DNA of 64,000 nt from Balanoglossus misakiensis (taxonomy: Eukaryota; Animalia; Hemichordata), in assembly GCA_040954595.2 (NCBI GenBank), contig CM082584.2, forward strand, positions 2,511,344 to 2,575,343. Reading direction: 5' to 3'. Under the pieces are notes generated by a model. That model ran no database searches. It saw only the letters and a list, made by a program, of their open reading frames with translations, and was not told the DNA's origin. The translations under genes and the position numbers were made by a program. The first letter of the stretch is position 1. Each line of letters starts with the position of its first letter. Positions 26,766-64,000 of this stretch are shown piece after piece.

Positions 26766-27249
26766 CTGGAGGGTAAGAAGAAATTCGAAATAATTTACAA
26801 GCATTACATTATTCAAGATAAGCCTACTCTTAACAACTGGAATCTCACACCAAAGACAACTGGGCTCAGATTATAACAAGATGGGGATAATTTTTCTCAA
26901 TTTCATCATTTGAGACAACATATCCCCAAACTTATGTAGTGTCGACGTAACATTATAACATAGTTATATCACTGTCAGGCATTTGTGTCCTACAGTCAAG
27001 GGGTTTTAGACACCTGCAGTCATTTTGATGGCGTTGGTTTGAATCCCACCAGTGCCAGAAGTGTCCCTTACGAAAAAGGTTCTATAGAACTCTATAGACC
27101 TCTATAGAAACGTGTAGAATTCAATAGAAAATCAATAGAAATTTATTTTCTATAGAATTCTACAGGTGACTTCTATTAATTTTCAACAGAAAATCAATAG
27201 AATATTATTTTCTATAGAATTATACAGATGATTTCCATTAAACTAGCCG

Positions 27250-28272: not shown

Positions 28273-28598
28273 AACGGACGCTAAGGATTTTGATTAAGGC
28301 GAAGATTGTATCGTTTGGCCATGGAAAGTAACCAGTTCACCCCGAGCAAACAGATACCAGTATACATTCAGCTCAAACACACAGCTATTCATTCTTAATC
28401 ATTCTATTTTATATTGTGAATGAATACTTGACAAATATGTCTCTGTAAATAATTCATTTATTACAATTTCAAAATGATATCTGCAAAACACTGGTACATA
28501 TACAAATCTGTATATAAATACAAATCAGAAGAAACGGACTCTCAACTATAGTACTGGGGTAAGTGTTTGCTACCTACAGACTTTTTTTGCAGCCCTTA

Positions 28599-36108: not shown

Positions 36109-36187
36109 CTCTAAGAAATGCTGTATTTTAAAATCACATGACCTACTGCATGACCTTTGACTCTTCTCATAAACGCCCGCATTTCTT

Positions 36188-36249
36188 ACCCAGCATGCAT
36201 CGAGGTAAATAAATAGTCGGCGAACTCCTGACCTTTTACAGCTGATTCA
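36188..36249 (+). promoter_or_regulatory. Putative BEN-gene promoter, mirror image of 32417-32460
   Basis: ACCCAGCATGCA at 36188 and ACAGCTGATTCA at 36238. Confidence 0.5.
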
Positions 36250-36332: not shown

Positions 36333-39300
36333 ATGAAGTACGCTTTATTTGATTTTTACGAAGAAAAGAGTGTTGAAGTTGGTGAGACGAATTGGATAGA
36401 AGATCTCGATGAAGACGACGTTATGTGTTTTGACTTCGACGAAGATTGTGCTGTCCAGTGGTCATCAAAGAAGGCAGGAAGAGATCCGGCGAGATATGTA
36501 GCAAAAGTTATCAAGTTTAGCGGTAAGAATTGTTTGGATTTTTTCAAAACTCAAAAAAAACGTGTCAGGTAGAAACATTACCCAATGTTGAAGACGTTCA
36601 TTGTAGAAAGTTACCTTTATCTCGATCCCAGGGTCTTGGGCTCCCTTGAACCAAACACAGCTTGTTTACTTCCTGTTCATTGTTATACTATTTGCATAAC
36701 AAAACGAGTTGCCAGGAAAGCCAGCAACCCCTTTGTTTTACTTTGTGACACAATTTTTTTACGTGGTTTGTGTTGTGCATTTTTGATCGTCAGCAAAAGT
36801 TTCTCATTCAGTTGTGTGTGTGTGTGTTTTTCACAACCAGGTCATAATGTTTATCTTTACAGATGACAGGCAGGAGCTGTTGCGACTAGCCAACGTCTAT
36901 GTCAAAAAAAGGGGTGAACACAAACATTAAGACTCCAGAATATGGACGGGGGAAACGTGAAAAGGCACCAAAGAGAATCTACACCGACAGCGAAGATGAT
37001 GAAGATGATTATGTACCGGTAAGTTGATATTTAACTACCATGTGGCTGATGCAGAATTCAATATGATTTATCTAGGTACAGATGATATTAATTTCTCGTT
37101 GTCAATATAAACACCCATTTTCAAAACTCCATGCCAAGTGTTCAGAAGTATCTCACAATAATCATTTCATTTCTTTTTTAGGAAAAAAATAACTTGAATA
37201 AAAAAAAGAAGATCAGCCAAAAGAATTCGTCTTTAAATTTGCTGAGAAAGTTAGAAAGCAAGAAGACATCTGAAGTTCGTAAAAAAATGGAGGAGGATGT
37301 CCAGTCACTTAAGTCTGTAAGTACTGGCAATGTCATACGCCACAATTTCTGCCCCTGAAGCATATACTTTTACTTCCAAACTTGCACAAAAGCTAAAATA
37401 ATGCTGACGTATAAGAGAGTGTTGTGAGCTTGTGTGGCTTAATTATGAAACAGGGATTGCACTAGTGTTTGCTCAGAATGAGTCCCTGTCACATGAAATT
37501 AAAGACAGGAAATTAAAATTTTTGTATTTATGTGAGAGATGGGACCCCTCTGTGTAAAAAGTAAGAGTCCCCCTGAAAAGTTCGGGAAGCAAAATATGGG
37601 GTTAACGCAACCCCTGCAAAATGTATCTTTAAAATGTGAGCAAAGTTATGCAATTATTGAAACTAATAATATTTCCATCAAAAAGTGACTGCAGTTCAGT
37701 GCTGTTGATGGGTAAATATCACAAGCATGTTGAAATCCATGTATGAACTGTGTTGTTATTGTTGACAACTGTGATTTTTAGTCTATTTCATTAATGTTCC
37801 TCTGCATTCTAGAGTTCATTCCGTGCTTCAACACCAGTGTCCAGTGGCTCAGAAGGCTATGATGAGGAAAAGCTACACCAAGAAATAAGGGAATTGAAGG
37901 AGGAAAATGCTGCACTACGCTATTCTCTTCGAGTGTTAAAAGGTAAAAGAATATTGATACACGCATTGAATAAAGTCAGTGGATTGTTTTAGTTCTTGTA
38001 TATTTTTAATGCAATGAGTAGGTTTTAGCTGAATCAAATTATTTTGTCAGTGTTTTTTTTGTTTTATTTTTAGAAATATCAAAAGTCAACAGCCAAAATA
38101 TGCCACAGAATGACTGTTTTTGAAAATACTCATGAATATCACAAAAGAACATCATTTTCGGCATTTTTTTGACGAGAAATTGAAGTATCAAGGACTCCAT
38201 ATATGTTTTGAAATACAAAGTAAAATGTTACCATAATTAATTTATAAATGAAAAACATTTAATTTATTCACTTGTACATGATGACTAAGCTGGGCAAGCT
38301 GTAACTTACCTTTTTCAGCACCAATGAAAGCCTTCATTTGTGACCAGCTTTCTCAAACTATGTGTTTTGTAGTTACTTGACAATAGTTTGATAATGCTGG
38401 TCAGTATGTAAACATCTCAGTTCACCACAATTAAAATAATTTTGTTTATGGATGATGGTCCACTGTCTTATTGGTTAACAATATTTTTTTGCCAGGATTG
38501 TCTCTTTTTTATTCCTTTTCCTATGAACTATTGGAGTTAAATCAATGAACATATGTCCTATACCTCTATTTTCTAATCTTTTCAAATGGTATAGAGTTAC
38601 CTGGCCTGCTTGGACAAATTGCTGATGTAAAAAGAACATTTGGTGTAAAGACTGGTGCACCTGCAGTCTCAAAGACAAATAACTCCAGTGGAACACATGA
38701 TGCCCAATTGAACAGTGAAGAGGTAACTGTTGACATCTATTTCAATTTATCATGAATGTCTGATTTCAGGAATCTGCATAGACATAGTCATAGTCATTCA
38801 AATAATACTTCTGCTTCTTAGGTTCAACCATATGGCCTAAGTAAGAAAATTCTTTGTTCTGCATGTGTATGTTTTGCGAGATTTCATGAAAAAAACTTTT
38901 CTGCCTGCAAATGTTTGTATACATGCTTTGGGAAATGTGATTGGAACACCTGCATGCTTGCAGAATGTCACATTTGAGTGCAACTTAACAGGGTGAAAAA
39001 TTAGTTTCTGCTGAGATTCTTGATAAGGTGCTTGTATTACATGGAAACTATCGAGTAAATATTAAATTTACCTGTTAAAAATTTCTGTGTTTCTGAACTT
39101 GTGCACTTACCTATCAAAATCTGAGTGGATGCAAAACAAAGAATTTAATTATTTTGGTCATAAAGTTTTTGTTTATTTATCTGCAGACCTGATGATTGCA
39201 ACTCTGTTTAGAACAGATCATGGCTCTGCAACTTTACTTCCATGGAAAATGTGGTTGTATTGTTAGAGCTGTTGATTTCATAGAAAATAGAAAGTATTGT

Positions 39301-40161
39301 AAGAACTCTGTGATAGAGTTTTTACTGTACTTTCTATTTTATCAGGTTTTCTATGACAGAAATCATATTTATTTTGTGTCTGCCTCTAGTGTTACCAATT
39401 ATTTTGGTCTTTTTCAGATTTTGGTCAATGATGAGATGATAGTAACTGCCAAGCAGCTGAGCCGCGTTGACAAATCAACAGCGAAGAAAATGACGTATGA
39501 TTTGATGGCAGTGGTGTTTGATAGGAAAACACTCAGGACTCATTCGTATAGTGGCAGAGTGTGCAACTCAGTCAAGGGTTCTTTACCCAAACCAGCGCTG
39601 GATGCCGACAAAATAAGAGCCATTAAAGGTATGTAGGTATTAAGTTACTTATCATCTCCAATTATTAATTTGCTATTTTAGGTCATAGGAATACACAAAG
39701 ATATATTGGCATTTTGTATATTTGGAGTGATCAGTGATGTATACCTCTTTAACATAGTGTAACCTGCTGTAGATAGGGTGCAAATTTTGCAGTGCTTTTG
39801 CAAAATCTGCTTTGGTCTGCTAATGGAGACCTGTATGTGGAATGAGATAGGCCATCTTTAAAAAGTTGTAAAAGCGTTTAAGGGACTGCAAATCAAATAT
39901 ACCATTCTCTCTACCGTAACCTTGATATATTTTCATTTAGTTTGTTCTTTGTTTCTGGCGGTTAGGTTTTAGAAAAAAAAAATATAGTATGGCAAACAAA
40001 GACATCTCTAAGGTTTGAGCTTTGGTTCAGTACAATTTCATTCAGCAATTATTTTTCTCTGTTTCCCCACAGATATTGTATGCAGCAAGTTTGACTGCAA
40101 GGTTGCTGAGGTAGAGCAGTACATTAAAATGAAAATTTACTCCGAAGCAAAACACAAGTAG
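36333..40161 (+). CDS. BEN-domain protein with central coiled coil; exons 36333-36522, 36863-37018, 37182-37316, 37813-37942, 38595-38722, 39418-39628, 40073-40161; one +1 frameshift in A7 at 36904-36910
   Basis: GT-AG introns are phase-consistent once one A is removed; coiled coil LHQEIRELKEENAALRYSLRVL; BEN-like KMTYDLMAVVFDRKTLRTHSYSG...KPALDADKIRAIKDIVCSKF; AATAAA at 40250. Confidence 0.82.
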
Positions 40162-40486: not shown

Positions 40487-41490
40487 ATCAATACACATCT
40501 ATAACTCTTCTATAGAAGTTCAATAGAAAATCAATTGAAATCTATATCTCTTCTATAGAAAATCAATACACATCTATAACTCTTTTATAGAAGTTCAATA
40601 GAAAATCAATTGAAATCTATATCTCTTCTATAGAAAATCAATAGCATATCAATGGAAATCTAGATCTCTTATATAGAAAATCAATACACATCGATAACTC
40701 TTCTATAGAAAATCAATAGAATATCAATTGAAATCTATATCTCTTCTATAGAAAATCAATACACATCGATAACTCTTCTATAGAAAATCAATAGAATATC
40801 AATTGAAATCTATATCTCTTCTATAGAAAATCAATACACATCGATAACTCTTCTATAGAAAATCAATAGAATATCAATTGAAATCTATATCTCTTCTATA
40901 GAAAATCAATACACATCGATAACTCTTCTATAGAAAATCAATAGAATATCAATTGAAATCTATATCTCTTCTATAGAAAATCAATACACATCGATAACTC
41001 TTCTATAGAAAATCAATAGAATATCAATTGAAATCTATATCTCTTCTATAGAAAATCAATACACATCTATAACGCTTTTATAGAAGTTCAATAGAAAATC
41101 AATTGAAATCTAGATCTCTTCTATAGAAAATCAATACACATCGATAACTCTTCTATAGAAAATCAATAGAATATCAATTGAAATCTATATCTCTTCTATA
41201 GAAAATCAATACACATCGATAACTCTTCTATAGAAAATCAATAGAATATCAATTGAAATCTATATCTCTTCTATAGAAAATCAATACACATCTATAACTC
41301 TTTTATAGAAGTTCAATAGAAAATCAATTGAAATCTATATCTCTTCTATAGAAAATCAATACACATCGATAACTCTTCTATAGAAAATCAATAGAATATC
41401 AATTGAAATCTATATCTCTTCTATAGAAAATCAATACACATCTATAACTCTTCTATAGAAGTTCAATAGAAAATCAATTGAAATCTATAT
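40487..41490. repeat. Right subterminal tandem array, 75-bp unit, ~13 copies
   Basis: TCGATAACTC recurs at 40691, 40766, 40841, 40916 and 40991; the unit is built from TTCTATAGAA, TCAATAGAA and TCAATTGAA motifs. Confidence 0.95.
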
Positions 41491-41796
41491 CTCTTCTATA
41501 GAAGTTTAATTGAAAAGTGGCCAAAAGTCCATAGAAGTCAATAGAATTTCCATAGAAATTCCATTGAGTTTCCATGGAATATCCATTGATTCTTAATAGA
41601 AATTTTTATTGAAAAGCAATAGAAGTTCTATAGAACTTTTTCGTAAGGGAATCAATCAAAGTGTATTATAAAACCAGATTCCAAGAAAATACAGCTGTTC
41701 AAAGGGGCTTAGGCTTTTTTCATCTTCCCTTGTCAGGTTGATGTGACTATTGTTAGTATGCAGTGTTGTATGAAATGTTTTACATCGCTTACTTAC

Positions 41797-46382: not shown

Positions 46383-47344
46383 CTGTACAAAACAAATAAG
46401 TGTCAGTATAAAATGTGGTAACTTTTTGCGTTTGTTTCTTCCCACTGAATTTCGACATCGCAAAGTGATTTCAGATGTCAGTTTATATTTATAATAACAT
46501 TACTGCCACTAAGAAATATGAATGAAGTTGCACAGTTCATATAAACATTACACCACTGGCAACTGTGCTATATCATGCCACTTTTATGACCGCTTTTGAC
46601 CTCTACATCCTGGCTTTTTGTCGGTGTGAGTATACAATTTCGAGTTTACCAACCATGCTATTGAATCAATGCATTTTTTCTCATCCTTGAACAAAACTGG
46701 TGAACATTGCCTGTTAGAAAAGGTTAGCTGTTCAACATTGAATGATGAATGATGTCAAACCAACAAATCACCAGGATGTAAGGTCACACAGGGGTCATGA
46801 AAGAGGCCTGTAAGATACTCTTGTTCTCTGCCCACTTTCTAACCCTGCTGTCACTACCAGCAGCAGGAATGGGACAGGGGACCAGGCTATATCTATAGGA
46901 CTGTTTGCTAACATTAAGTGTGTTTACTTGAGTAAGTTGGGTACTATAAAAAGAATTGTCACCATTACTGTAGGGGAGACATGAGTCTACCTGGTTGATT
47001 TATATTTTACATAATGTGCTTAGATTAATAGAAATAATTTATGCATAGTTACTTAGGAACACTTCCATAACTAGTCTGCATTTTGCCTCTGCCAAATAGT
47101 AAAGAAAAAACATCAGAAAATAGGCAGAGTAGAAACTAAACTGCACTCTCCTAAATATAAAATGGTTTACCCCTAAGTCTAATGTGATGCATAGTGTGAT
47201 TCAATTTGTGTCAATAAAATTGCAACCACATCAGTGTTCAGTGAAAACAGTATGTGACATACTTTTCCACCTGACCAAATCTATTAGAAACACATTTTTT
47301 AAAGAAATTGTTTTAAAGGGGCAGCTGCTATGACATTTGGGATT

Positions 47345-47800
47345 AATAGAATCTCACACTCCCAAGGACCTGGGATCATATTTCTCACACGAGTTGGGGA
47401 TTTTCTGTCACACACGAGCCGCAGGCGAGTGTGGGACAAAATATCCCTGACGAGTGTGAGAAATACGATCCCAGGTCCTTGGTGTGTGAGATTATTTTTC
47501 TCACACGGTCACAAATTAGCCAAATTCGTTAAAACATTGAATAAATGACTCTGGAACTGTCGTCTGGGGGCACGTAATAGTTCTGTGCCTGTAATACACA
47601 TCACGCCATTGGATAACATTTAGTGCGCGAAGAGAAAGAACTCTTTGTCAACCAATCAGCGCTCGCGTCATATACAGCTTTCGATTCAGTGAGAATGTGA
47701 GAATAATAGAATCTCACACTCCCAAGGACCTGAGATCGTATTTCTCACACTCGTCGGGGATATCCTATCCCACACTCCCAGCGGCCAGCAGTGTGAGAAA
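47345..47800 (+). mobile_element. Hairpin non-autonomous element (GCCGCAGGC loop) plus a partial tandem second copy
   Basis: Palindrome 47350-47495; the start is repeated at 47705; homologous to 22205-22535. Confidence 0.8.
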
Positions 47801-47807
47801 TTAAATA

Positions 47808-47984
47808 CAGTAAAACCTGTCTGAACCGAACACTGAAGGCACTGAAGAAATTGTTCAGTTTACAGACATTTCCAGTTTGTAAAGGTTCTTTTAACATGTG
47901 ATTCTATGTCGAAGGTACTGAAAAGGTGTTCAGTATAGACAGGTTTCCAGATTAGACAGGGTTTGGTTTTGACAGGTTTTACTG
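47808..47984. mobile_element. pogo/Tigger-type MITE
   Basis: TA|CAGTAAAACCTGTC ... GACAGGTTTTACTG. Confidence 0.8.
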
Positions 47985-49993
47985 AAGGTTGAAAATTAAT
48001 TCTATGTGGCCACTTAAGATTCTTGTGCTACTCCCAACAATATGTTGAAACCCACAATTGATGTATAAAATACCATCCACTAAATATTTAAATGTCACCA
48101 AAAACATTTTACTCTAAATAAATAAATATATTCTATAAAAACATATTTTTTAGACATGTTGCATATTTACGTAACAGTAGTAAAAAATGTGAATGATAAC
48201 ATTACACATTCACGGGCTATGTTGACAAGTGAAGTATAAATGGGTATATTAGCATGCTGTTTGGAGTAGAACAAGAAATTCCCATTGATACTCAGAACAA
48301 AAATATATGTACATCAATTAAAGCCAAAAGTTACAGCTAATGTCCCGTTAAGTGCATTGTAATTCAGAAAACTTCTGGAGCAGTGAATAAATCCTACTAT
48401 TCCTAGTATATCAGAAGTTTTTTTCATTTTAAAAATCAAGCTAGTTGCTTTAAAAAAAAATGAGACACTACTTTGTACAAAAGTTATGACAGCTTGCATT
48501 CACGCAGATTTGAGCCAGACATCTCAAAGCGTTAACAAAAAAACATAGAGCATACTGTTTTTGCGAAGGTAATTTAAATTGCTTGTTACGTGATAGTAGT
48601 GAAAACAATGGTGACATTGAAGTAACCGAAATGTTCTCCTATATCAAGCTTTCAGAGATAATTAACAGAGAAATGTTTATTTCAAAAAGTGAATGTCTTA
48701 TTTTTTAGCTTATACAGTCACAGTATGTAATAGAGGGACTGTGATATAGTGCACTGGTTTGGCTGTTGTTTCACTACAGATTTTTGTGGTGGGGGTCACG
48801 GGTGGGTCTATGATGGGGGAAACCAGCATAGAACCCCCCCCCCCCCCTCCACCCTCCCCCTAGCTGTGTTTCCATAGTAGTACTAAATGTGACATTATTA
48901 TATGACTCAGAAGGTCACATAGCTCTGCGTACAGGTCTGTGTGTTCCCGGCTGTATGCAGAGCTAATGGTCACACAGAGAAACCACACGACAGAGATCTC
49001 ACCATCTCAAAAAGCTGACTCTGAAAAGCATGTAAAAGAATTAAGACTGGCTTACCTGTAGGAGGACCTGTGTCACACATCTCTGCCCGCCAAGGTCTTG
49101 CCAACGACCCTGGCGATGTCTGTCATCTAGTCTTGCTCCAAGCGATGCTAATCACACTGGCGGCGCGTTGTACTGTTCCTTTCCTTTATCTACAGGCACA
49201 GCGACTGCCGTAAAGCCAAGTCATCACCGGACTCATCATATCTGATATACTTCCCTGGCCGGTCGGGGCAACACCGACGTCACGATAAAACGTCGTAGGT
49301 CCCGTGGCAACACCGTAGCTACACCCTAATGAGAGACAATGTCTAGTGATCTGAGTGACGGCAACTGATCCAGGATCTCAATCACTCACCCGGCTCTGTC
49401 AGTGTCATGGCTCTCTCTCTCAACTACGGTGCGACCTGTGATGACGACCACCTCGCAAAGTTCTGCCAAGCGCCGCCGCGTCCCATGTAGAAAGGTTGCG
49501 AAACCCTTTGAAAACACTGCCAAGAATGCTCCATTATCCGAAATATGTTCTTTCACTGACGTCTCCACTCATGAGAAATTTAAAAAAGGGGCGTAACACG
49601 CTGTTGTAAAAGATCAGCTGATTCGCGACCAAAACATTCACGATTGACCCTTGACCTAGGATAGTCTGTACCCTCGATCCAGCGCCAGCTAAGTTGGCGT
49701 TGTTAAAATAATTATTAGGTAAACAGCCATCACTATAAGCTATAGATGTAATTCAGTAAACCAAAATCTTTAAAAATATATGTTGTCAAGAACAATTTAT
49801 AGACCAAGGCCATGGCCAGAGGTACATCCGAAAAATACCAACTGTACATGGTTATTCTTGTATAACCTTTGACCCCGATTTGTAAACAGTGCTGCATGTT
49901 TGAAGTATCGCTCTTAAAAATTGAGATTCACCTGATGCAGTGGTTTTATATGAAAGCCAGTTGGGGACATGTACATACGCAATAAATAAAAAA

Positions 49994-50226
49994 TTATCTC
50001 GAGATCTCGAGATAATGCTATTCGTTTTCCTGACTTTTTATTTTTTTATCTCGAGATCTCGAGATAATTCCAATTCGTTTTCCCGACTTTTTATTTTTTT
50101 ATCTCGAGATCTCGAGATAATTCAAGTTCGTTTTCCCGACTTTTTATTTTTTTTATCTCGAGATCTCGAGATAATTCCAATTCGTTTTCCCGACTTTTTA
50201 TTTTTTTATCTCGAGATCTCGAGATA
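49994..50226. repeat. Left TIR array: 5 copies of a 22-bp palindrome, ~53-bp period
   Basis: TTATCTCGAGATCTCGAGATAA counted 5 times. Confidence 0.95.
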
Positions 50227-50660
50227 AATTTGTCTAAAGAGGGCGGGTGTATTGGTACGGAGACTGTCCAGAGAGGGCGGTGTATCGGTACAGAGAATAT
50301 GGCGTTCTTTTACTAGCTTGACCTAGTACCAGGACTTTTCGTCGGATTCTGCCTTACATGCTGCATCGTATCTTATCAGACTGACTGAGTGTTGGTAAGT
50401 TGAGATTTTACCTCCTTCTCATAACCGTTAGATTTGTCGTACACGTAACATGACCACACGATGCACAATTTGTACTGGTTTGTGATGTGGCAATCTATTG
50501 AGTCGCCTTGCACGTCAAGCGTCATCATGATCATGCCAAACACGATCGACGCGACGTTGACAATGTGCTGCATGCAATAGGTTGACTGAGACGTTCTTGT
50601 CAGTATCTCGTACTCAACTTAACTTGCTTGATTTTTGATTCATGATGTAACATATGCCAT

Positions 50661-50695
<35 letters not shown>

Positions 50696-51038
50696 ATCAC
50701 AACTTGAGGCTAACTCTGGCCTTATGCCACGCTGTTTGAAACATATATCATACATGATTCAACTTGTGTGTGGGGCGGATAGTTACATCGCCTAGGATCA
50801 AGTTGCCATAACTGGATTCTTCCAATAAATAAATGCACTTTAACTTGATCTTGAATATTAAACAATGCAATGTTAACATCAGTACAGCTGCTGTGATTTA
50901 TTTTACTTTGCTTCAGTCTGTGATTATGACACAGACAAATGTGAGTGTGTATGGTGACCTCAGTACATCCAAGGTCAAACGTCAACAACTCTTCAGTTGA
51001 TATGAAAGTTTCAAACAAAAAAATTAAAGCAAAATAGG

Positions 51039-51078
<40 letters not shown>

Positions 51079-51139
51079 CTGTCTCTATGTATTAATGAGT
51101 GTGTGTGTAATGTTTGTGCACATTGATTGACTTGATTTA

Positions 51140-51563
51140 CAGCCGAAATTATGAAAGGTCGCCGATTCAATATGTGATCTAGACGTCCTGTGTGCACTGA
51201 ACACACGATGTGTTTATCTAACACAAACAACAGAACCTCTCATAAAAGAGATGCGGTATCATTAGACTAATTACAGATGGTAGTCTGGAAACACGCTCCC
51301 CCTCAGAGAGAGTTGTTTACTTGGGTACGATGTCAAAGTTTAATCTCAAAGTGTATACGCTTTATGTTGAGAGTGTACCCAAGTAAACAACTCTCTCTGA
51401 GGGGGAGCGTGTTTCCAGACTACCATCTGTAATTAGTCTAATGATACCGCATCTCTTTTATGAGAGGTTCTGTTGTTTGTGTTAGATAAACACATCGTGT
51501 GTTCAGTGCACACAGGACGTCTAGATCACATATTGAATCGGCGACCTTTCATAATTTCGGCTG
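51140..51563. mobile_element. Foldback MITE: 189-bp arms, 46-bp spacer, TA TSD
   Basis: TA|CAGCCGAAATTATGAAAGGTCGCC...GGGTAC is mirrored by GTACCC...GGCGACCTTTCATAATTTCGGCTG|TA; no mismatches seen by eye. Confidence 0.92.
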
Positions 51564-51667
51564 TAATATTGAAGATTTAAGCACCGATGGCATTTATTAC
51601 AAAGAGTTATATTATTATCAATAGAGTCCAAGTTGAAGTCTTAATCACTCCCTAAATTATTTTAAAT

Positions 51668-52309
51668 TGTATGTATGTATGTATGTATGTATGTATGTAT
51701 GTATGTATGCATGTATGTATGTATACGAAGTATGCGGTTCGACTGTTCCGATCCAATGTATGTATGTATGTATGTATGTTGACAATTGAGAAGTTTCCTC
51801 ATCAAAAATTCTGAACAAAATTCTTGCTTCACTGTAATTTTTGGTGAAATATCAACTTTATTCAAGGTGAGAAAGTAGATAGTTTTTCCTTCTGAGATAA
51901 TATGCTCAACTTTCCCAAACTGTTCATAAAAATCAAGTTGATGCATTATTTCATGCTTGTCTTTAGGTACATCAGTTTTGATTTAACTGTTGTTGATTTT
52001 CCTTACAGAAAAATATTACTTAAGCAAACAGATCAGACAAAATGGCAGAAAAACTATATGAATTTCTTAGACGACGCAGAGTGCCTGAAGAGGAAATTGA
52101 CAGACTTGAACAGGAAAAGGTAAATTTTTTATTAGTTCTTGTTGCATATATGTAAATATGGCTAAATGAGCTTTAAGGCTAGTAGGTGGAAAAATATTCA
52201 TTGACAGTCTTTCCATCTTTGTTTGTTTGTTTGTTTGTATGTATGTACCCGTATGTATGTATGTATGTATGTATGTATGTATGTATGTATGTATGTCTGT
52301 ATGTATGTA
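51668..52309. repeat. (TATG)n microsatellites at 51668-51724, 51757-51779 and 52238-52309
   Basis: Direct reading. Other microsatellites: (CA)n ~22712, (TG)n ~46195 and ~51042, (TA)n ~50663. Confidence 0.95.
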
Positions 52310-54539
52310 TTTAGCGAGACCCCCCGCACCCTCTGCCCATATGCATGCACTAAGATTCCATGTGCTTTAAATTGATTTTCAGATTGATCCATCGGTGATC
52401 CTCTTAATGGATGATGAGATGTTATCTAAGTATTTGACATCTTATGGGGACAGAGTTGCTGCTGTGGACTTCTCTCGCAGATTATTTTGTACTGTTCCAG
52501 ACAGAGAGAGCAGGAAGTCAGAACTACTGAAAAAAATAAGACAAAAATTTAGCCTTCGAAATGGAAAGCAGAATAGTGTATCAGATGACAAGGGAGAATC
52601 AAGTAAAGGTAATCGTGGACAAGCCTCAACTAGACCAAGACCATTTGGTAATACACATGCAGCAAAAATAAAGCGGAAAATTGAAATAGGATGGCTTGAT
52701 TTTGATTTCATTGAAAAAGAATACAAGCAAGTTCGAGCCAGAAAAGGTGGTGGAACAAGGTGTATATCAGTAAGTAAGTCGAGCACGAAAGCTGATCTCC
52801 TGACTACAGGAAAAGATTTGTTTTTCCCCAACGGCGTATCACAGCGAGGAGACATGGACAGTTATCACGTTGACATAAGAGATTCAGGAGAAAGAACAAT
52901 TGATGAAACAAGCACCGTTGGCGAATTGTATGAAGTAACTGGATTTAGAATGCTCCGCTTCTACATTATGACAAAGAGAAAAGACTGTGAACAGGTAGTG
53001 AAACCTAAAAAGAAGAGCAGACAAACAAGTAAGCAGTCACAATTAGAATCAGTGTCATTGTCAGATGACAGCAGTGATGCTGATCTACCTGATCCAGGAC
53101 TTGATAGGCATGTGCCAGTTCCACCGGCAAAGACGAGACAAGCAAGCAAGGGACAGTCACAAGCTCTTCCACAGGAATCTATTGATATGTTGTCTGATGA
53201 GAGCAATGATGCAGGTGTACCAAGTGCAGGAAACCACAATAAGCATATCCTAGATACAGTTCACCATGATCATGGTATGCCCAGTTGTAGCAGATTCCAG
53301 TCTGAACCCATCCCTGACGTAGGTTCTGAAGTCACATTAGAGACAGTCGATTCTGATGCAGAACCACTGGTGATTAGTGATAATGATTCAAACATTGTTC
53401 AGTTTGGATCACGGGGTTCCAATAGTAACTCAGCAGAAAGCCTTGATTCTACATTGCCGTTCTTTGAAAATGATGAACCTGTTAGCCAATCCCAGCCCCA
53501 AGACACTACCAGTCATATCAGTGAAGATCAAGACCCAGTGGAGACTAGAACACTTGTAATACACAGGAGTGATGTTTTGAATGACATGATTTCAGAATTC
53601 TCAGATCCAAAGATTATGGCATGTCCTATCAATGTGGCCATGGTTATGCCAGGAGGTAATATTGAGCGTGGTAGTGGTAGTGGAGTTGTGAGAGACTGTT
53701 TTACAAGTTTTTGGTCCGAGTTCTATGAATGTTGCACAGTTGGAAAGAATTGCCGGGTGCCATTCATTAGGCATGATTACCCAAGAGAAAAATGGGAAGC
53801 TGTAGCAAGAATAATCATGAAGGGTTGGAAGGAAATGGATTACTTCCCTATTGAGTTTGCAAAGCCATTCATGGAAGAAGTAATGTTTGGAGACCAGAAG
53901 TGTGAAGAGGCAAGTCTACTTCAAGTGTATTATCACTTCCTGTCTGAATCGGACCGTGAAGTATTTGAAGCTGCAATGAAGAACTTCCAAGAAGTAGAAG
54001 AAGATGAGTTAATTGAAGTGTTAGACCGACATGACTGTAAAAGACTGCCAACCAAAGAAAACATTGGATCCATTCTGCACGAAATAGCGCATAAAGAGAT
54101 AGTACAAGAGCCAATGTTTGTCATTGATAGTTGGCGACCAATCTTACAGACATTAGGCAAACAAATTGGCAAAGAGAACTTGGATAGACTGTATAATGAC
54201 AAGAAACCAACAACAAAGAAAGTCCTACAACATCTTCAAATCGCGGAATGCTTGAATAATGATGAGAGGGCTGTTGCTAATCACTTAAAACGATACATCC
54301 GTGAACTTGAACAAAGTACTCTAAAGAAGTTCCTGAGATATTGCACTGGTTGTGACATAATGACAGCAGAGCCGATTCAAGTGTCATTTGTTAAACTTGA
54401 TGGTTTACAACGTCGTCCAGTTGCTCACACATGTGGCAATGTGCTTGAACTGCCATTGTCATATGCCAACTTCGTAAAATTCAGAAGTGAGTTCAATGCA
54501 GTTTTGAACAGTGGTTTTTGGGACATGGATATTATTTGA
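52042..54539 (+). CDS. HECT-domain E3 ubiquitin ligase (G2E3-like HECT), ~744 aa; exons 52042-52119 and 52383-54539
   Basis: HECT motifs ERGSGSGVVRDCFTSFW, LKKFLRYCTG and RRPVAHTCGNVLELPLSY (catalytic Cys present). Spliced N-terminus MAEKLYEFLRRRRVPEEEIDRLEQEK|IDPSVILLMDDEMLSKYLTSYGDR looks SAM-like. No stops. Confidence 0.9.
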
Positions 54540-54928
54540 GACCATTGATATTGTTTCCATTGGTAGAACAGCAATGGTGAGTTATTACATGAATTAAAGG
54601 GACAATATTGTTGTGTTTGGCTTACATTGATATAAAGAATACAGGGAATACTTGTGTAAAGTCACTTGGTATGCAAAGTAATGATTATGTCAATGATGAA
54701 CCTGACGTGTCAGAAGTCACCTCTTTGCTGCATGGAAGAGGTGAATTTATGTGGATTCATTATGGGATGCGCCTGTAACTTTGCACTATTTTCAGTGTTT
54801 TCTTTAAATGTTCATACAGTTGCCATTTACTGTCATATTTCCTACAAATTGTTTTATCATTGATTACGTTAAATGTTTACACATATTATCTAATATATGG
54901 AGAAGCTAAATACTTGATGTGTTATTGC

Positions 54929-55069
54929 AGCCTGTTGTGGGGAGTTATTCAGTTACTTATTCAGCCTGTTGTGGGGAGTTATTCAGTTACTTATTCAGCC
55001 TGTTGTGGGGAGTTATTCAGTTACTTATTCAGCCTGTTGTGGGGAGTTATTCAGTTACTTATTCAGTTA
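54929..55069. repeat. 34-bp minisatellite, 4 copies, between the convergent genes
   Basis: AGCCTGTTGTGGGGAGTTATTCAGTTACTTATTC at 54929, 54963, 54997 and 55031. Confidence 0.95.
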
Positions 55070-55590
55070 CTATGTGACACAGTGTGTGACATAATGGTTA
55101 AAGCACAGGATGACCAGGCTTGGTTATTGGTGTAGATATAATGTAAACAAACAACTAGGAGTAGTCTCTGTTCCACTCTACCAAAGAAGATCAGTGCTTT
55201 ACTTGTCACTTATCGTCTGTATACTTAGTTTCTTTATTAACATGTTTGTTTGTTTGTTTACATATTTACATCTACAACCAAGCCTGGGCATCATGTGGTT
55301 TTAAGGTGCAAACAGTTGAGCCACAAAGTTGTTGTATTTCAGCTTTTATTTGCGGTGACAGTATTATACTTTACAGAATTAGATCTAACATTAACACAAA
55401 GTCTGTACCATAGTTTCATATTACTTCAGTGTTGAAGATGAACAATATTGTCATTATGTTCTGAAAGTTAATAAAACTTTGTTGTGTTGACAAATATCTT
55501 GCTTTAATTCATCCAGTTCCTTGCATGGAAGTGACATTGTTGTTGTTGTTTGGGTGATGTATAATAATTTCCTTTTACAGTAAGGTCTTG

Positions 55591-57558
55591 CTAGTCCGAT
55601 AAGGATTCATATTTTATAGAATTTCGGAGATTCACGTACAATTCCACAGCAGAATATGGGTCAGAAGGTAAATGCATATTGTTGTCGACCATGTATGAGA
55701 CACAGTACTCGAATAAATCTTCATCACAGGGGCACGCTCCTTTGAACACACATTCCTCTCGGCATGTGTTAATCTGTTCCTGAGAAACAGTTGATCCGAA
55801 ATCATGACTTCCATACATCTCCGGGACAAAGAACATCATGTGAGGTCGCCCGATGGGAGAGACTGCGTTACGTGAACGACTGATCCTGTGACAATTCCAT
55901 TCCATTACAGCATCATCCAGTTCATCCTGAATTATAAAATGACAGGCACAAAATGTATGAGGAAGTTCAATGTTAGCAGTTTAATACATGCATCAGTTAA
56001 ACATAGTCCCTAGGTACTATAGGATATCTAAAAGATACATACATGGTGACACCTCATCTACATGAACTCTTCAGACGGGAAGGTACACCTAAAATTAATT
56101 TATTGTAGTGAAATATAACCAAACAAACGGAATAAAATTACAAATATTATAATTATAACAATTTACATATATTAGATTATCAATTGGTGTATAGACGGGT
56201 TTACCAGCTGGCGTGTAATTTATGATGAGGCTTATCACACCAACAGTATTCGATCCGAGATTAATAGTAAGGTATTTGTCGAAGGAGTGGAAAGTCTAAA
56301 ATGTTGTCCAACATATGCATGCAGGATAGAGGTGCATAAAATGGACAATTGGAATAAGTAGACAAGGACAGTCTTAAATCACACACACAATGCATTGCAG
56401 GTTGTGATTTTTGTTCATCATGATACATATCAACACATGTACAGCACATTTTAAGCCTTTTTTACTTTGTATTTGAAGGTTTAAACCAAAATATGTGAGC
56501 AGTCCTTTCTTTTCAATACATAAAAACGTTCTTTTTTATACTCCTCCCATTTGGAAGAGCGTAGGGTTATTGTTAGTCAGTTTATACATGGGACTTCTTA
56601 TATTTTATTGTATTGTACGTTTTCACTATATAATATCAATCCTAGCAATATTTTCTATATAAGTATTTAAAGTATATACAGTATAAGTGATAGTGTAACA
56701 GATTGAGGAAAGACAATTATTTTTTAAGTCCCAAATTCTTCTTCTTACCTGTATCATTTTCAGGAAGCAAAATCTGACCAGATCTTTATCAAGATAATCA
56801 CCACTGAAGACTCCATCATCCTTTAGTTTGTAGAAAAGATCCAACCAAAACTGTCCACAGTGTTGGCGAAATGTACCCCACCATCGTTCTATGCGTTGGT
56901 TGAGTTGACTGCTGCCATAATAAAAGCAGTTGTCATCATTTGTTAGAAACTTCTGGAACTGTTCAACATGTCCATTTTCTGTGCCTCTATCCGCTCGCAT
57001 GTTTTGGGGGCAAGATTTCAGACTTTCAACTTCTTTGATGAAGTACCCTGCTATAATCTTCGGATCACTGTTGGTGTGATAAGCTTGAGCCCAAATTACA
57101 CGCCTGGAAAACCCGTCTATACACCCATTGATTGCTATTCCGTAAGGGGAAAGTTTGTCATACGAATCTAGGTGCCACATATAGTTCGGCCCAGGAGACC
57201 CATACTGGCGACGGCGTAGACGACGTCTCTTTCTTAATTCCACACCTATGGGGTCAATGATCTGGAGTAACAACCGCACACTCTCCCTGTCGATAACCAA
57301 TCCTCTCTGGACACACTTTAAATGCATCCACCGATAGCCGTGGAGTCTTCCAGATTTGTCAACCTCTTCTCTCAGAAATGTTATTACCTCATTGATGTCT
57401 GAATGGTACTTCCGTCTGAAAAGTCCGAGTTTCTTCAGTAATCTTTTAAGATGACGCATACTAATGACAACGTTATGATTGACAGCTAAAGTAGCCAGGA
57501 TTTCACTGTAGTTGAAGCCCATGTTGAAATAGATACGGATTATATCATCTCTTTCCAT
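55591..57558 (-). CDS. Integrase-like (IS3/IS481-related) DDE transposase, ~381 aa; exons 57558-56749 and 55926-55591
   Basis: N-terminal HTH-like region (YF.MGFNYSEI..SMRHLKRLL; GYRWMH); triad WHLD / RADRGTEN / NQRIERWW; phase-0 GT-AG intron joins KMIQ|DELDDAVMEWNCH. Confidence 0.92.
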
Positions 57559-57997
57559 GGTGACGTTATCTGTTCGATAGAGGAGGAATGTTAATTGTCG
57601 CATTAGATAAAAGGAATTATCGTATAATGATAATGAATAAAGTATAATATTGAAACCAATTGTTTAGTAACTTTACCACTGAGTCAGTTTTCTTGCCAAC
57701 TTGGAAAGTAATCTCTGGCCAAGACTTCGGTAATTTGTCCCAGTACGTATAACTAGTAATTATAAATATTACGAAGTTGAAATGTCAACTAATTACCAAG
57801 ACTCATGCACTCAGTCTGATGATACGATGCAGCATGCAGCTCTGAAACCGACGATCACTCCTACCATTGAATACACTGAGTGCTTGCTTGCCAATTCTCC
57901 GTACCGATATCGATGCATGTCCCTCTCTGGACCGATATCGATGCATGGTCCTCTCTGGACAGTCCCCCTACCAACACACCGCCCTCTTTCGAGAGAA

Positions 57998-58490
57998 TTA
58001 TCTCGAGATCTCGAGATAAAAAAATAAAAAGTCGGGAAAACGAATAGCATTATCTCGAGATCTCGAGATAAAAAAATAAAAAGTCAGGAAAACGAACTTG
58101 AATTATCTCGAGATCTCGAGATAAAAAAATAAAAAGTCGGGAAAACGAATAGCATTATCTCGAGATCTCGAGATAAAAAAATAAAAAGTCAGGAAAACGA
58201 ACTTGAATTATCTCGAGATCTCGAGATAAAAAAATAAAAAGTCGGGAAAACGAATAGCATTATCTCGAGATCTCGAGATAAAAAAATAAAAAGTCAGGAA
58301 AACGAACTTGAATTATCTCGAGATCTCGAGATAAAAAAATAAAAGTCGGGAAAACGAATGGAATTATCTCGAGATCTCGAGATATAAAAATAAAAAGTCA
58401 GGAAAACGAACTTGAATTATCTCGAGATCTCGAGATAAAAAAATAAAAAGTCAGGAAAACGAATGGAATTATCTCGAGATCTCGAGATAA
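57998..58490. repeat. Right TIR array: 10 copies of the 22-bp palindrome
   Basis: TTATCTCGAGATCTCGAGATA counted 10 times; linkers mostly alternate ACGAATAGCA / ACGAACTTGA. Confidence 0.95.
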
Positions 58491-61400
58491 TTTTTTATTT
58501 ATTGCGTATGTACATGTCCCCAACTGGCTTTCATAGTTTTAAACCGATGGTGGCAAAGAAGTTTTCCGCGAACATGAAAACAACACAGCTGCAAAATGAA
58601 GGTATTGTTCTACTGATACATTAAACGCACAACTTAGAATATGTGCCGTTTTAGCCACATGCAGTTTGCAGGCACCATGTAGCTCTGCTTGGCATAGTAA
58701 AACACGTGTCACGTGTTGATCACATGACTTAAATGAAGGCGAACGTCCATGTTTGTATGGGAGGGTCACCAGTTTTACGGCGCTGCATTAACGACGTTTA
58801 CGATTCGGCGACAAACACGTCAAGTAGGTTCCCATTTGTGAAATTTTCGTTCGATCTTTATTTCTGACAACATTATGTACATGTTCATGTAGTTTATTGT
58901 TTGAAAATCGGTGCGTATCATTTTGCTCCGCACCCAACGGATTTTCCTATGGATGGCTCCATAGCTTTGGGGAGGGAGAGCAGCGTTGACCCAAACAGCG
59001 TATAAGTCCAGAGCTATGCTGGGCAGAGCTGTGTGTCTTTACGACGTCACTCCTGTATATGAGAGAGACGGTGGGCGATCTCTTTTACAGTTATTTTCAA
59101 AATATTGTTTTTAAAAAAATAATATTTATTATTATCATCATCATCATCATCATGATTCCAGCTATTAATTTGCAGTACACGTTGTTGTCTTTTGCCAGAA
59201 AGGAATGCATTTCTCATATCACCTTACAAACTGCCAGAAATCCAAACAACACCTTTATGATAAAGCCTACAATGAAATGGTGGATGGTACAAATCAAAGA
59301 TTATGTGACTGCATGATCCTCTCCACATGATACTTCTCAAAGGATATTAATTTGCTTGGAGGGTGAATGTCTGTTGCTAAGCAACCAATGATGTGGGAGT
59401 GATGTAGAAATCTTTGTGATTTCTCAAAATATAACCATTATTCTAAATTAATATTTCCGTCAATTGGTTTTCAAGCATAATATATACACAACACAACAAA
59501 TTATATTGATATACCATGCCTAAAATATGAAATGGAAAAAATGCAATCAAATGAGTGGCCAAGCAAATTTTTTCAAAATTTTCCATTTAATTAACATTTT
59601 GTAATAGTTTATATATTTGAGGCTGACTGTGGGTTGATTCTGTCTGTCTTAAACATTCAAGAAAAATTTGTTTGTAAAGTCATTTCAATGCCTGTCTATT
59701 AAAGCCTGTATAGCTGCCAAATTTCACATATAAAATACTTCAAATATATTCCCTATCCTCTAAATCCTCAACTTAAGCCATATTACTCGCATTTGCATCA
59801 GTTTGTCATCTTTTGGCAACGCAAACCACGATAGCTGCGTACTGTTTGTATGGAGGCTGATGAAATAGGTGCGGCACCGTTTTAATACAAAAGTGTTCAA
59901 ATTGCAACATGCAGTCATAATCGGGCATCGATAAGGTGTTCATCTATACCTAAGTAAGCTTATTTAGATGGACTAATTTAAGTTGGAAATTAATGCTAAA
60001 AAGTGGCAGCTCTAGAGACTTTCAATTCCACATTTTCTAATTCCACAATTGTTGGATGTAAATGTATTTGAAATATGTGCTTTGATTGGATTATATGACA
60101 TAGATTTATTTGAAGGGTGTGTTTGGATTAGATTATGTGACCATTGGATTTTGGATTTGTGTTCAAGAATTGTTTGGAAATATAGAAGGGATCTGATGAA
60201 AAATGTTCAGGCAATTATTTTACCTTGGTCTAGAGTTTTAAAAAAGGGTGCGTGATTTTCATGTTGTTTGGGTATTGATACTATGTTCACTTCCAGTTCT
60301 ATATTTGCAAATTGAGATATGCTTAAATGTCCAGTATTCAGCTTATCAACTCTACCAGTATTTTCATTAATAACAATAAAATTTATGCGTTTATTGTTTG
60401 TGTAATTTGGATTATTAAGTCAAATGAGGGACAGTTCTTAATGTACACCTTGGAATGAATCAATCAACAACATAATAGATAGGTGCATATTTTTCCTCTA
60501 TTTTGATGTGAACTTTGCTAAATCCTTTTTATCATTTAAACAATGACCTTTGGCTTTTCAGAGACGCGGTCAAGATGTCTCTCCTAATCCGTTTGAGCTC
60601 GCGCTCTGATTCGATAGTATCATGCAGATGTTGCTTCATGTGATTGGCTAACGTCCTTGTCACGTGACGTGGCATACGTGTGGAACATACGTTCGGAACA
60701 ACAAACGACACTTGTACGCGTAAATTATGATTACGTATAAAATAATTCGGATAATCTCAATTTTTGGCGATCGATCTATAAAAATGAAATTGTGAAGTAA
60801 GTAGGCAACCATGGTGATACTTCCGGTGGAACGCCATTCTCGTGTACGTTAAGGCGTGGGCGCCCTCTATCGACAGACTGAATACGTTAATCGAGCATAA
60901 TAAACAATTGTAACCACACCAGCCAATCAGTTGATGTAATTCATGTTCAAGACAAGCAAATAAAATGAGACATTTCCGAGAAAACCTCCAAAACTATTAT
61001 CATGTGACAAATAGTGGCATTTTGGGGGTCGAAAATGATATTCTTAAAAGAAGGCCAAAAATCCACCGCTAGATGCTCACAATCCCATTATTATTTTTTA
61101 GTTTCACCTTATGACCCGTCAACTTTCTCTGATAGGACTCATACTGTAGTGTATTTCGCTGCCATAATATTTTGACGATGTAGATTATCGACTACCCATT
61201 GACCGGCAGCCAAAATTCCACCATTTATAGGGTTATGCTGAATCATTAACTTCGTTTTCAAACACAGTATCGTAATCTTGAAATGGGCGAACATGTTAAC
61301 CTTCGATTACGACCAGAGGTGTCAGAAAATAAAGCTGTTTAGCGGTGGATTTTTCGTATTTTCCGCCTCATAAATTATCCTTACCCTGGGACGCTCGTCC

Positions 61401-61827: not shown

Positions 61828-64000
61828 ATGCACTTGTTCAGTTGGCATGTCATCATGGCATTTTGTGGTTATTTTATGGCCATAGCTGCAAGAGCAACAA
61901 AAGAGCTTTCTAATTCCGAAAAGTCTACTCAGGAAAAGGCTGAAAATACATCAAGATTTATGCCTGTTTACAACATATCCATTGGACAAAGGTATGCCAA
62001 ATATCAGGATATCATGGCTAACAGCAGAAATATGCAAGTTACCAGTTTAAATTTAAACTGCCACGATTTGAGAAAACACTAAGTGCTTCAGTTCAATGGT
62101 TGAATTCCAGGAAAAATGTCAGTATTTCTACAGTATTTTTCTGCAACTAGTTGGCAAAAACTGCCTTTATCAAGGCAAATCCTACACACAGCACTTGACT
62201 GTCAAGAGTGCCAAAGTAGCAATGTTGATGTTCTGCTTTTGAACAAGTACTATCAGAAACATATCAAAAGTCTTCCCTTCTCGACTGTTGAGGTAATTGA
62301 AGATGCAATGGGAGAGATGCAACAACTACAAAATCCACATGAGACAAAGCTGACTGTCCCTCTTAAATCTACCGTAAGAACTGCCGGACAGCTATATCAG
62401 CGAGTAGAGGAGTCATACAATAAAGTGTACTCAACACCTTTCAGTGAAGCGCTTCTCAAAGTTCCGGGGTTCAAGCTACAGACAAAAATCAGCAAAGAAC
62501 AGAAAAAGAAAGACAGACGAGCACTTTATACTAATGTCAAGCAAAGCATCGAAAAATCCCACGCTAAAAATGACGGAGATTTAAAAACAATCCTAGGATC
62601 CGGTCAGTCATTTGCTTGCTACGAATCATGTTGACGGTCTGTTGACTTTGAGTCTACCGATTCTGCCAAGAAGCGAGTAAATCGCCGTCTACAACTAGAA
62701 TCCCTCAACAAGCTGACACCAAAAGACCATGTTGTAAAAACAGAGTCTGTTGAATAGGACAAAAGCTCATTTGTAAGTGAACTTTCCAATTATGATGCTG
62801 GCAAGGTCAACTGGAGTAGCCTTGCGAGAAAGTACGGGCTAACAGCTGCAAATGGTGGCCAAATACTGAAAGAGTACGCAACCTCAGCTGGCATCGACAC
62901 TGACAAGTTCAATATCAATAAGAAGGTTCAAGGTCGAGATTTTGTCAGAAGAGTACACCGTAAAACATTGAAAGGTCTTGGGGGAGGTGTCACTTCCTCA
63001 ACACCGACCAGCAAGAGCCCTGCAAGAAATATTGAAAACAAAAATAAGAAGTGGCGAAATCGACATCGGTGAATTAATAGCACCAAAAGAGTTCCAAAAG
63101 ATGACCATTGGAAAAGATGGCAAATTAAAAGAAGAAACTTATACAATCTACGCTAGAAAAATAAACTTACAGACAATCCGAAAACGAGAGCTTGACAGAC
63201 AAATTAAGCTTGGTGTTCTGAGAAGCCATGTTTATGGGTATGACGACGGTCATTACCAAAACCTAGAAGAAAAAGAAATAAGGGATGAGCTACAAAGAAT
63301 ACACGAGTTGAAAGAAGGAGAAACCATCGATGAAATGCGCAGTAAATTAAAAAGACTACATCACTCACGGCACTTCAAAATATGGCATGACCACAGTACT
63401 GTAGGCAACCATTCCCACATTGTCTTCATGGTGAGCTGGATATACGACGCGGCAACATATCTGACAAATGAGGAGTACTTGGAGAAACACGGAAAAAAGT
63501 AAACGTTGACTCGCTTGTTGAGAAGCCACATCTATATATAATGGGACGATCCAACTCCAATGACGTTGATCAGCTGTCATATGTTGAAACCAGAGTAGAA
63601 GATCTAAAATGTTTAACAGGACCAATAACATCCGACGAAGGTTCCAGGGAATACACAGATGTCCACCGATTTTTTCATGGCGATGGACCGGCACAGGAGT
63701 TTGAGGATTAGCACCAGAAAGGAGGTCACTACCAGTGCATCTGTGGAATAGAGTCAAGAAGACATGATGATCTGTCTGCATGTTACCATCTGAAATATCT
63801 GTCAATAGATGAGAAACGTAACTTGTTAATCAAGGGCAGCCCAATATGGAGAGAAAAGTCACGGCAAACTCCCCATCCATTTGCCAACCTAACAGTGGCC
63901 GACCTTAGGAGAGAGCTTGATGCTAGGGGTGAAGAAACTGAAGGATTAAAGAAGCCAGACTTACAATCTAAACTCTCTGAAATTTTACATGGTATGCAGA
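61828..64000 (+). pseudogene. Decayed large DDE transposase (RAG1/Transib/Chapaev-like motif spacing) with SAP-like motif; runs off the window
   Basis: Joined broken frames give KIWHDHS, RFFHGDGPAQEFED*HQKGGHYQCIC and FANLTVADLRRELDARGEETEGLKKPDLQSKL; several stops and frameshifts. Confidence 0.6.

Follow-up and report, generated by a model that had tools for sequence, protein, structure and literature searches.

Structure of the element

We analysed a stretch of 64,000 nucleotides from the hemichordate Balanoglossus misakiensis (contig CM082584.2, positions 2,511,344 to 2,575,343), referred to here as the window. Positions 49949-58535 of the window are occupied by an IS3EU/GingerRoot DNA transposon of 8.6 kb. 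The element has two convergent genes, one encoding a DDE transposase and the other a protein with a HECT ubiquitin ligase (E3) domain. In related elements, a HECT gene occupies the corresponding position and again faces the transposase, so this gene is almost certainly a standing component of the transposon group. The features of the element are as follows, in window coordinates.

49943..49948: left target site duplication (TSD), GTTTTA
49949..50016, plus strand: left terminal inverted repeat (TIR), 68 bp, perfect, first bases TAT
49994..50227: left subterminal array, 53-bp unit repeated 4.4 times, with a 22-bp palindrome in five exact copies
50233..50408, plus strand: left promoter-like or untranslated first-exon cassette, closing with a GT donor-like site
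51140..51563: hairpin of 424 bp resembling a miniature inverted-repeat transposable element (MITE), 200-bp arms 99% identical, TA at either side
52042..52119, plus strand: HECT gene, coding exon 1, 26 amino acids
52383..54539, plus strand: HECT gene, coding exon 2 (remainder of the N-terminus, ubiquitin-like domain, linker and HECT domain; C-terminus MDII)
54922..55066: tandem repeat, 34-bp unit repeated 4.2 times, between the stop codons of the two convergent genes
55591..55926, minus strand: transposase, coding exon 2, 111 amino acids and stop
56749..57558, minus strand: transposase, coding exon 1, 270 amino acids, with D131 (57168), D190 (56991) and E224 (56889)
57780..57992, minus strand: right promoter-like or first-exon cassette, a mirror of the left one
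57995..58490: right subterminal array, 52/53-bp unit repeated 9.5 times, with the 22-bp palindrome in nine exact copies
58468..58535, minus strand: right TIR, 68 bp, perfect
58536..58541: right TSD, GTTTTA

A preliminary description of the locus had reported perfect outer TIRs and a 6-bp TSD, and both are present. The outer ends read TAT..ATA, the 68-bp TIRs are perfect inversions when counted inward from 49949 and 58535, and GTTTTA abuts both ends of the element. By our own arithmetic, the chance of such 6-bp identity at two set positions in AT-rich DNA is about 1 in 1,000.

The subterminal arrays are probable transposase-binding sites. The left and right cassettes are 75-79% alike as mirror images and both close with a donor-like GT. 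They are probably promoters with untranslated exons, the left one driving the HECT gene and the right one the transposase. The MITE-like hairpin, which lies upstream of the HECT start codon, is a passenger. A search with Rfam found 0 families in the window.

The transposase and classification of the element

The minus-strand transposase gene was said to be intact and spliced, and our analysis agrees. Its two exons are joined across a GT-AG intron and encode 381 amino acids without a stop. The protein matches the Pfam family rva_4 (PF24764, E value 5.6e-25), and the acidic residues D131, D190 and E224 are present without exception in the 29 aligned sequences. The part encoded by exon 2 matches full-length homologues at 40-50%. 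Database searches found 547 related proteins, the closest of which are 51-61% identical; among the best 120 of these 547, the named relatives belong to fish, frogs, molluscs, echinoderms and a beetle. A scan of viral contigs for the transposase gave no matches.

According to the accessible part of PMC10045372, IS3EU and GingerRoot elements lack the HHCC motif, end in TA..TA and have TSDs that are usually 6 bp long. The Balanoglossus element shares the TA..TA ends, the 6-bp TSD, the lack of HHCC and, as judged by eye, an integrase-like DDE core with the same motifs, and its size falls in the GingerRoot range of 3.9-12.9 kb. No HHCC motif occurs in the 130 residues ahead of D131, and the first Asp lies inside the 100-300-residue range of the IS3EU/GingerRoot definition. 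In a by-eye comparison, the core motifs agree with those of IS3EU-1_CGi, -2_SK, -1_DR and -1_TC in the accessible supplementary alignment of that paper. Given its ends, its TSD and its HHCC-less DDE transposase, the element is classified by sequence as a member of IS3EU, as had been proposed.

The HECT gene and its catalytic domain

The second gene, on the plus strand, encodes 744 amino acids and is free of stops. Its intron is predicted, and an ungapped alignment with homologues spans the splice junction, which supports the earlier account of an intact, intron-containing gene convergent to the transposase. The encoded protein consists of a helical N-terminus, a predicted ubiquitin-like domain, a disordered linker and the HECT domain, in that order.

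The HECT domain, defined following the accessible text of PMC9547173, is bilobal and C-terminal and extends over approximately residues 415-744. The preliminary description had called it a full domain. Pfam recognizes only the C-lobe (model positions 198-293 of 306), with an above-cut-off match (E value 8.1e-7). By contrast, a profile of the family built from 29 sequences aligned to HUWE1 across 315 positions, AHTC included (E value 1.8e-5). An AlphaFold model of exon 2 has a mean predicted local distance difference test (pLDDT) score of 73, with folded regions mostly above 90. In Foldseek, this model aligned with the HUWE1 HECT domain over 375 columns (best E value 3.2e-12, template modelling score 0.61 by target). 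The two-lobed extent of the domain is thus supported by profile and fold, while the Pfam evidence stops at the C-lobe.

The catalytic cysteine of the AHTC motif, which had also been pointed out, is Cys710. Its codon lies at 54432 and it aligns with the HUWE1 AHTC. The cysteine is kept in 46/46 relatives that cover the column (12 of the 58 do not cover it) and in 105/107 of the more distant relatives that do so (35 of the 142 do not), the latter being less than 50% identical to each other. The HECT protein is probably an active E3 that works through Cys710.

We found 58 homologous proteins, which are 29-47% identical to the HECT protein; those with names are uncharacterised proteins of fish, frogs, scallop and beetles. 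The family profile reached 1,315 clusters at 50% identity, with E values up to 1e-30. Pfam found no PHD or RING fingers in the HECT protein. A HECT scan of metagenome contigs with a single protein query gave no matches.

The N-terminal module

The ubiquitin-like domain has a predicted beta-grasp fold and covers approximately residues 120-228, followed by the disordered linker at approximately 231-406. In the AlphaFold model of exon 2, residues 205-380 form this low-confidence linker. The first 206 residues were modelled separately (pLDDT 86), and this model contains the beta-grasp domain. Its top Foldseek matches are nearly all ubiquitin-like folds, at E values of 1e-3 or weaker. With VIA-align, the domain matched a Polycomb ULD with Z 9.1 (root-mean-square deviation 2.5 over 80 residues), nearly tied with the USP11 UBL and ATG8/12. 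The helical N-terminus has a weak match to the SAM domain only (E value 0.14). No Pfam family could be assigned to the helical and ubiquitin-like module, and a search of the ESM Atlas with the ubiquitin-like domain found unnamed eukaryotic clusters only.

Relatives from fish, frogs, a scallop and beetles keep the N-terminal module to the same degree as the HECT domain, with invariant positions. We infer that such conservation would be more readily explained by a target that is itself conserved than by one peculiar to a given host.

Occurrence of the HECT gene in related elements

We examined 90 transposase loci. Of these, 80 were the best among at least 463 that were confirmed in metagenome contigs, and the other 10 came from genome contigs. 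A strict HECT search was positive at 10/90 loci, and tblastn at 11. These counts are low because intron-rich, divergent HECT genes were missed, which a relaxed search and Pfam put right. The relaxed search found HECT segments at 23/90 loci, all downstream of the transposase and on the opposite strand. Over the covered flanks (286 kb downstream and 162 kb upstream), no HECT segment was located downstream on the strand of the transposase and no upstream segment on the other strand; a single weak hit was upstream. Pfam confirmed HECT in 8/9 relaxed segments tested.

When near-identical loci are merged, HECT occurs at 20/80. Among these non-redundant loci, the counts by available downstream flank are 13/31 with at least 3 kb, 9/18 with at least 5 kb and 9/15 with at least 7 kb. 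The last group divides by source into 8/8 metagenome loci and 1/7 loci from genome contigs. The locus L006, whose left end is cut, has its two genes enclosed by inverted subterminal arrays.

Accessions and contigs also link the two genes. Consecutive RefSeq numbers, read from accessions rather than DNA, served as a proxy for gene adjacency. HECT and transposase numbers adjoin in Oreochromis niloticus (XP_019211278/79), are consecutive in Haplochromis burtoni (XP_042079684-86/87), Astatotilapia calliptera (XP_026017406-07/08-11) and Xenopus tropicalis (XP_031750185/86-87), and are near-consecutive in Maylandia zebra (XP_024656170/73). Nine of the 12 members of the transposase cluster P0073 are on contigs (0.1-1.3 Mb) of exactly the same size as contigs of the HECT cluster P0020, versus 0 such matches between P0073 and a control HECT cluster, P0013. 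Among hand-picked cluster pairs, an accession or contig link was found for 3/6, and none for the Photinus, Misgurnus and notothenioid pairs. No transposase-HECT fusion occurs among the stored proteins.

Selaginella GingerRoot elements capture fragments of host genes (accessible text of PMC6839031), and the present copy departs from the majority in the sampled animal at two HECT-domain amino acids. Both facts would suit a neutral passenger, i.e., a host gene captured recently and intact in this copy by chance. This explanation is extremely improbable and already largely refuted: many divergent elements hold HECT in the same position and orientation, the two genes co-occur in multiple copies elsewhere, and the family comprises the 1,315 clusters with their conserved catalytic cysteine. 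The preliminary description took the ligase to be a standing part of the element, a view that would be contradicted by a HECT gene that is confined to this copy, evolves neutrally or is nearly identical to a single-copy host gene. At the level of the family, the gene occurs in many relatives, its catalytic cysteine is strongly conserved, and the best matches, at 29-47% identity, are uncharacterised and include no named host ligase.

Seven loci (L004, L017, L026, L031, L033, L037 and L040) have, in the same slot, an intron-rich and more divergent HECT gene with Phe at the fourth position from the C-terminus (position -4). By sequence, IS3EU-like elements carry at least two HECT subfamilies.

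At three other loci, convergent protein-kinase exons follow an IS3EU-like transposase on the minus strand (L088:12125-12939, L089:11676-12097 and L090:11593-12387). The contigs are intron-bearing and probably animal, and are filed in prokaryote metagenome-assembled genomes. One protein, P0057 (635 amino acids), combines the same helical and ubiquitin-like N-terminal module with a Ser/Thr kinase that looks intact. A search for other adaptor-plus-kinase proteins gave none, which leaves P0057 as the single example.

Co-divergence of the two genes

Across the 10 pairs in which the larger part of the HECT domain is available, transposase distances correlate with HECT distances (Mantel rho 0.37, p 0.006). 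The signal is driven by one clade, which contains this element, the cichlid, Xenopus and P0020/P0073 pairs, and L006. Compared with this element, members of the clade have transposases that are 54-57% identical and HECT proteins that are 44-48% identical.

Copies and age in the sampled animal

The element was found in two DNA runs of one sample, in which contig depth is not copy number. In run X1, contigs covering the element interior have depths of 1134-1238, left-flank contigs have depths of 1437-1743, and diverged paralogous contigs are at approximately 33. One contig is continuous from 48922 into the TIR. High depth could suggest many dispersed copies, which we rejected because the left flank is as deep as the element. 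Either the neighbourhood is amplified as a block, or the flank depth is the single-copy level; neither shows dispersed copies. Window positions 46400-57890 have a depth of 1100-1700 in X1, compared to approximately 33 for the diverged paralogous contigs, and the neighbourhood has possibly undergone block amplification by a factor of some tens. There is no second copy of the element in the window.

The majority sequence in X1 has 9 differences from the window in the 5.6 kb compared, all within 54150-56657. Among the coding differences, HECT residues 616 and 725 are changed and two others are silent. The clustering of the nine differences in 2.5 kb could reflect a recombination or conversion tract between two copies. 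Near-identical pieces also occur in runs X3 and X4 of organism B at a depth of approximately 2, from which we do not infer horizontal transfer. The perfect TIRs, the intact TSD and the two open frames point to a young insertion.

Possible roles of the HECT protein

We tentatively favor the idea, while giving it somewhat less than an even chance, that this is an intact two-gene IS3EU/GingerRoot element whose HECT-fold protein is an accessory E3 directed at the transposition machinery of the element itself. Both genes would be transcribed inward from the homologous cassettes inside each end, and we propose that they are thereby co-expressed. The transposase would bind the terminal arrays, excise the element and reinsert it with a 6-bp stagger. 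Using host E1 and E2 enzymes, the HECT protein would load ubiquitin on Cys710 and, via its N-terminal helical and ubiquitin-like module, mark a target at the transposition complex, either the transposase itself or a host factor that is conserved. The mark would lead to release or turnover of this target. Judging by tail mutants of E6AP, Met at position -4 may mean that the product is mono-ubiquitin or short or atypical chains, not long chains linked through lysine 48 (K48).

The transposition machinery (transposase or conserved host factor at the complex) may be the class of target, although the case falls a little short of an even one. We rank it first for two reasons: an adaptor-like N-terminal module has been conserved in hosts that differ greatly, and within this clade it shows co-divergence with the transposase. 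Deubiquitinase and SUMO-protease domains encoded by other transposons are thought to act in transposition (accessible text of PMC2836005). A complex prediction with transposase exon 1 (270 amino acids) and HECT exon 2 (718 amino acids), made without alignments and with the C-terminal transposase exon left out, had a score of 0.00, which counts neither for nor against an interaction.

Several observations weigh against a ligase that acts on the transposition machinery. Most DDE transposons function without any ligase. Six of the 15 well-flanked loci lack HECT, three of them having a convergent kinase, and not all relatives therefore require the ligase. With the 80-residue C-lobe alone, co-divergence falls to rho 0.19 (p 0.026) in 21 pairs and rho 0.04 (p 0.34) in 14 pairs. 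In the other transposase clade, the transposases are 59-65% identical, while their HECT partners are only 21-46% identical, so these partners may change fast or be exchanged. Identity to solved HECT structures is 11-17% in Foldseek, and E2 binding is therefore not assured. Finally, position -4 is Met in this protein and in 45 of the 58 relatives; of 98 relatives that reach the tail, 90 have Met at this position, 4 have Ile and 4 have Phe. The canonical Phe is thus absent here.

In the accessible text of PMC6463701, the -4 Phe of E6AP is needless for thioester formation and required for chain elongation and K48 specificity. It is treated here as a common and functionally important feature of HECT domains, not a defining one. 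The conserved cysteine combined with Met at -4 suggests that catalysis is conserved and that its output may be atypical. The Met and the very low identity to active HECT domains would also fit a non-canonical ligase or scaffold that binds ubiquitin or E2, may form the thioester and transfers little, serving as an adaptor or decoy like G2E3. Divergent G2E3-like HECT families exist, and the HECT domain of mammalian G2E3 is reported to be non-functional (accessible text of PMC3673628). Such a scaffold is unlikely, however, given the cysteine in 105/107 relatives, the fixed length of the tail and a -4 residue that is always hydrophobic (Met, Ile or Phe in 98/98). Additionally, the intron-rich relatives have Phe at this position.

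The ligase could instead serve counter-defence, marking host silencing or restriction factors (the PIWI-interacting RNA pathway, chromatin repressors or DNA-methylation readers) for degradation and so keeping the element expressed. Fungal IS3EU elements carry TET/JBP genes proposed to evade methylation, beside an alpha-kinase opposite the transposase (accessible text of PMC12730594), and anti-silencing proteins are encoded by plant VANDAL elements (accessible text of PMC5735166). Sequence divergence is faster in the HECT partner than in the transposase, and the partner may be exchangeable. Moreover, when the ubiquitin-like domain is compared by structure, Polycomb RAWUL/ULD domains rank among its top matches (Z 9.1 and 8.3), about level with other ubiquitin-like folds. 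However, similarity of fold does not reveal function, searches of the HECT protein gave no domain known to bind silencing factors, and the conservation of the N-terminal module across distant hosts is unlike what we would expect of a host-specific arms race. We regard counter-defence as possible, if doubtful.

Outside the transposition complex, the ligase might act on DNA-repair or cell-cycle proteins of the host and so ease the damage from excision breaks, a role suggested for the Ulp1 and OTU domains of Ginger1 and other transposons (accessible text of PMC2836005). The kinase that occupies the same slot at other loci would fit a signalling function of this kind. This role overlaps with the action on the transposition machinery, and we consider it very unlikely as a separate explanation.

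Relation to known systems

The structure and function of IS3EU are described as largely unexplored in the accessible text of PMC11934779, and the superfamily is merely listed in that of PMC4455052. PMC3520738, which reports a talk on DNA transposons with conserved host-derived proteins, has in its accessible text no statement on IS3EU and HECT. The accessible parts of PMC10045372 and its supplement mention no HECT or ubiquitin gene, which sets the Balanoglossus element apart from the IS3EU and GingerRoot elements described there. Neither term occurs in the accessible supplements of PMC12730594 and PMC10045372, and the words ubiquitin, HECT and ligase do not occur in the accessible text of the GingerRoot paper.

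The fungal IS3EU elements of PMC12730594, as far as that text is accessible, resemble this one in having a gene for a protein-modifying enzyme opposite the transposase, a 6-bp TSD and TAY..RTA ends. They differ in that their genes encode an alpha-kinase and TET/JBP, whereas the present element has a HECT gene and lacks genes for TET/JBP or a kinase. Enzymes of the ubiquitin/SUMO system, namely Ulp1 or OTU proteases, are also encoded by Ginger1, Mutator and Helitron elements (accessible text of PMC2836005). Those enzymes remove modifiers and are fused to the transposase in Ginger1, whereas the HECT protein would add ubiquitin and is encoded by a separate gene.

The C-terminal, two-lobed HECT domain with its cysteine in the C-lobe is shared with HUWE1, UBR5, the NEDD4 family and class IV G2E3/GL-Metazoa (PMC3673628, accessible text). 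In contrast to these, the present protein combines 11-17% identity to the solved domains and Met at -4 with a Pfam-less N-terminal module, and it is transposon-borne and multi-copy. That paper surveys divergent G2E3-like HECT families, and the string "transpos" is absent from its accessible text.

Outside Repbase and subscription reviews, which our search did not cover, we found no published description of a pairing of IS3EU with HECT or of a transposon-encoded ligase of this kind. Repbase names ending in "_2p" (e.g., IS3EU-1_CGi_2p) suggest that another protein is annotated in some families, and the pairing may thus already be on record in Repbase. Within the literature that could be searched, the HECT pairing is new; it is widespread and not unique to this locus.

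Other features of the window

The window is repeat-rich, animal-type DNA (G+C content 0.28-0.45) with remnants of long interspersed nuclear elements (LINEs), CACTA-like elements and MITEs. A direct duplication of 1.15 kb with 97% identity (2860-4011 and 4271-5425) lies close to its start. A CACTA/EnSpm-like open reading frame (ORF) of 741 amino acids at 28602-30824 (minus strand) has a weak Transposase_21 match (E value 1.2e-5). A BEN-domain ORF is located at 39196-39633, and tandem arrays occur at 27246-28274 and 40487-41579. Together, these ORFs and arrays possibly constitute a large CACTA-type element. Between the two ORFs, 32737-36246 (minus strand) holds an open endonuclease and reverse transcriptase frame of 1170 amino acids, apparently an intact LINE. 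At 62104-64000 (plus strand), a broken, multi-frame ORF with a SAP domain (E value 4.5e-6) and a weak DDE match is probably a decayed DNA transposon.

Significance

The slot opposite the transposase in IS3EU elements could be that of a modular protein-modification gene, in which a conserved helical and ubiquitin-like adaptor is joined to an exchangeable catalytic domain and modifies the transposition complex or silencing proteins. We offer this as speculation that is somewhat unlikely to hold in full. With comparable reserve, the exchangeable domain might be HECT in most animal elements and a Ser/Thr kinase in others, as in P0057. If the slot is indeed modular, the Met-tailed HECT domains would form a large class of transposon-borne ligases with their own chemistry, and many animal proteins annotated as "uncharacterised HECT" would be transposon genes, not host genes.

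A transposon-encoded ligase would tap the host tagging system in the adding direction, whereas the transposon enzymes that we found in print remove tags. The element is compact and nearly intron-free, and both of its genes are intact, which makes it suitable for assays. It thus gives a testable handle on self-regulation or host evasion in a little-studied superfamily. The finding also bears on annotation: the family exceeds 1,300 clusters at 50% identity, and those of its members that come from fish, frog and beetles are annotated as uncharacterised proteins of the host.

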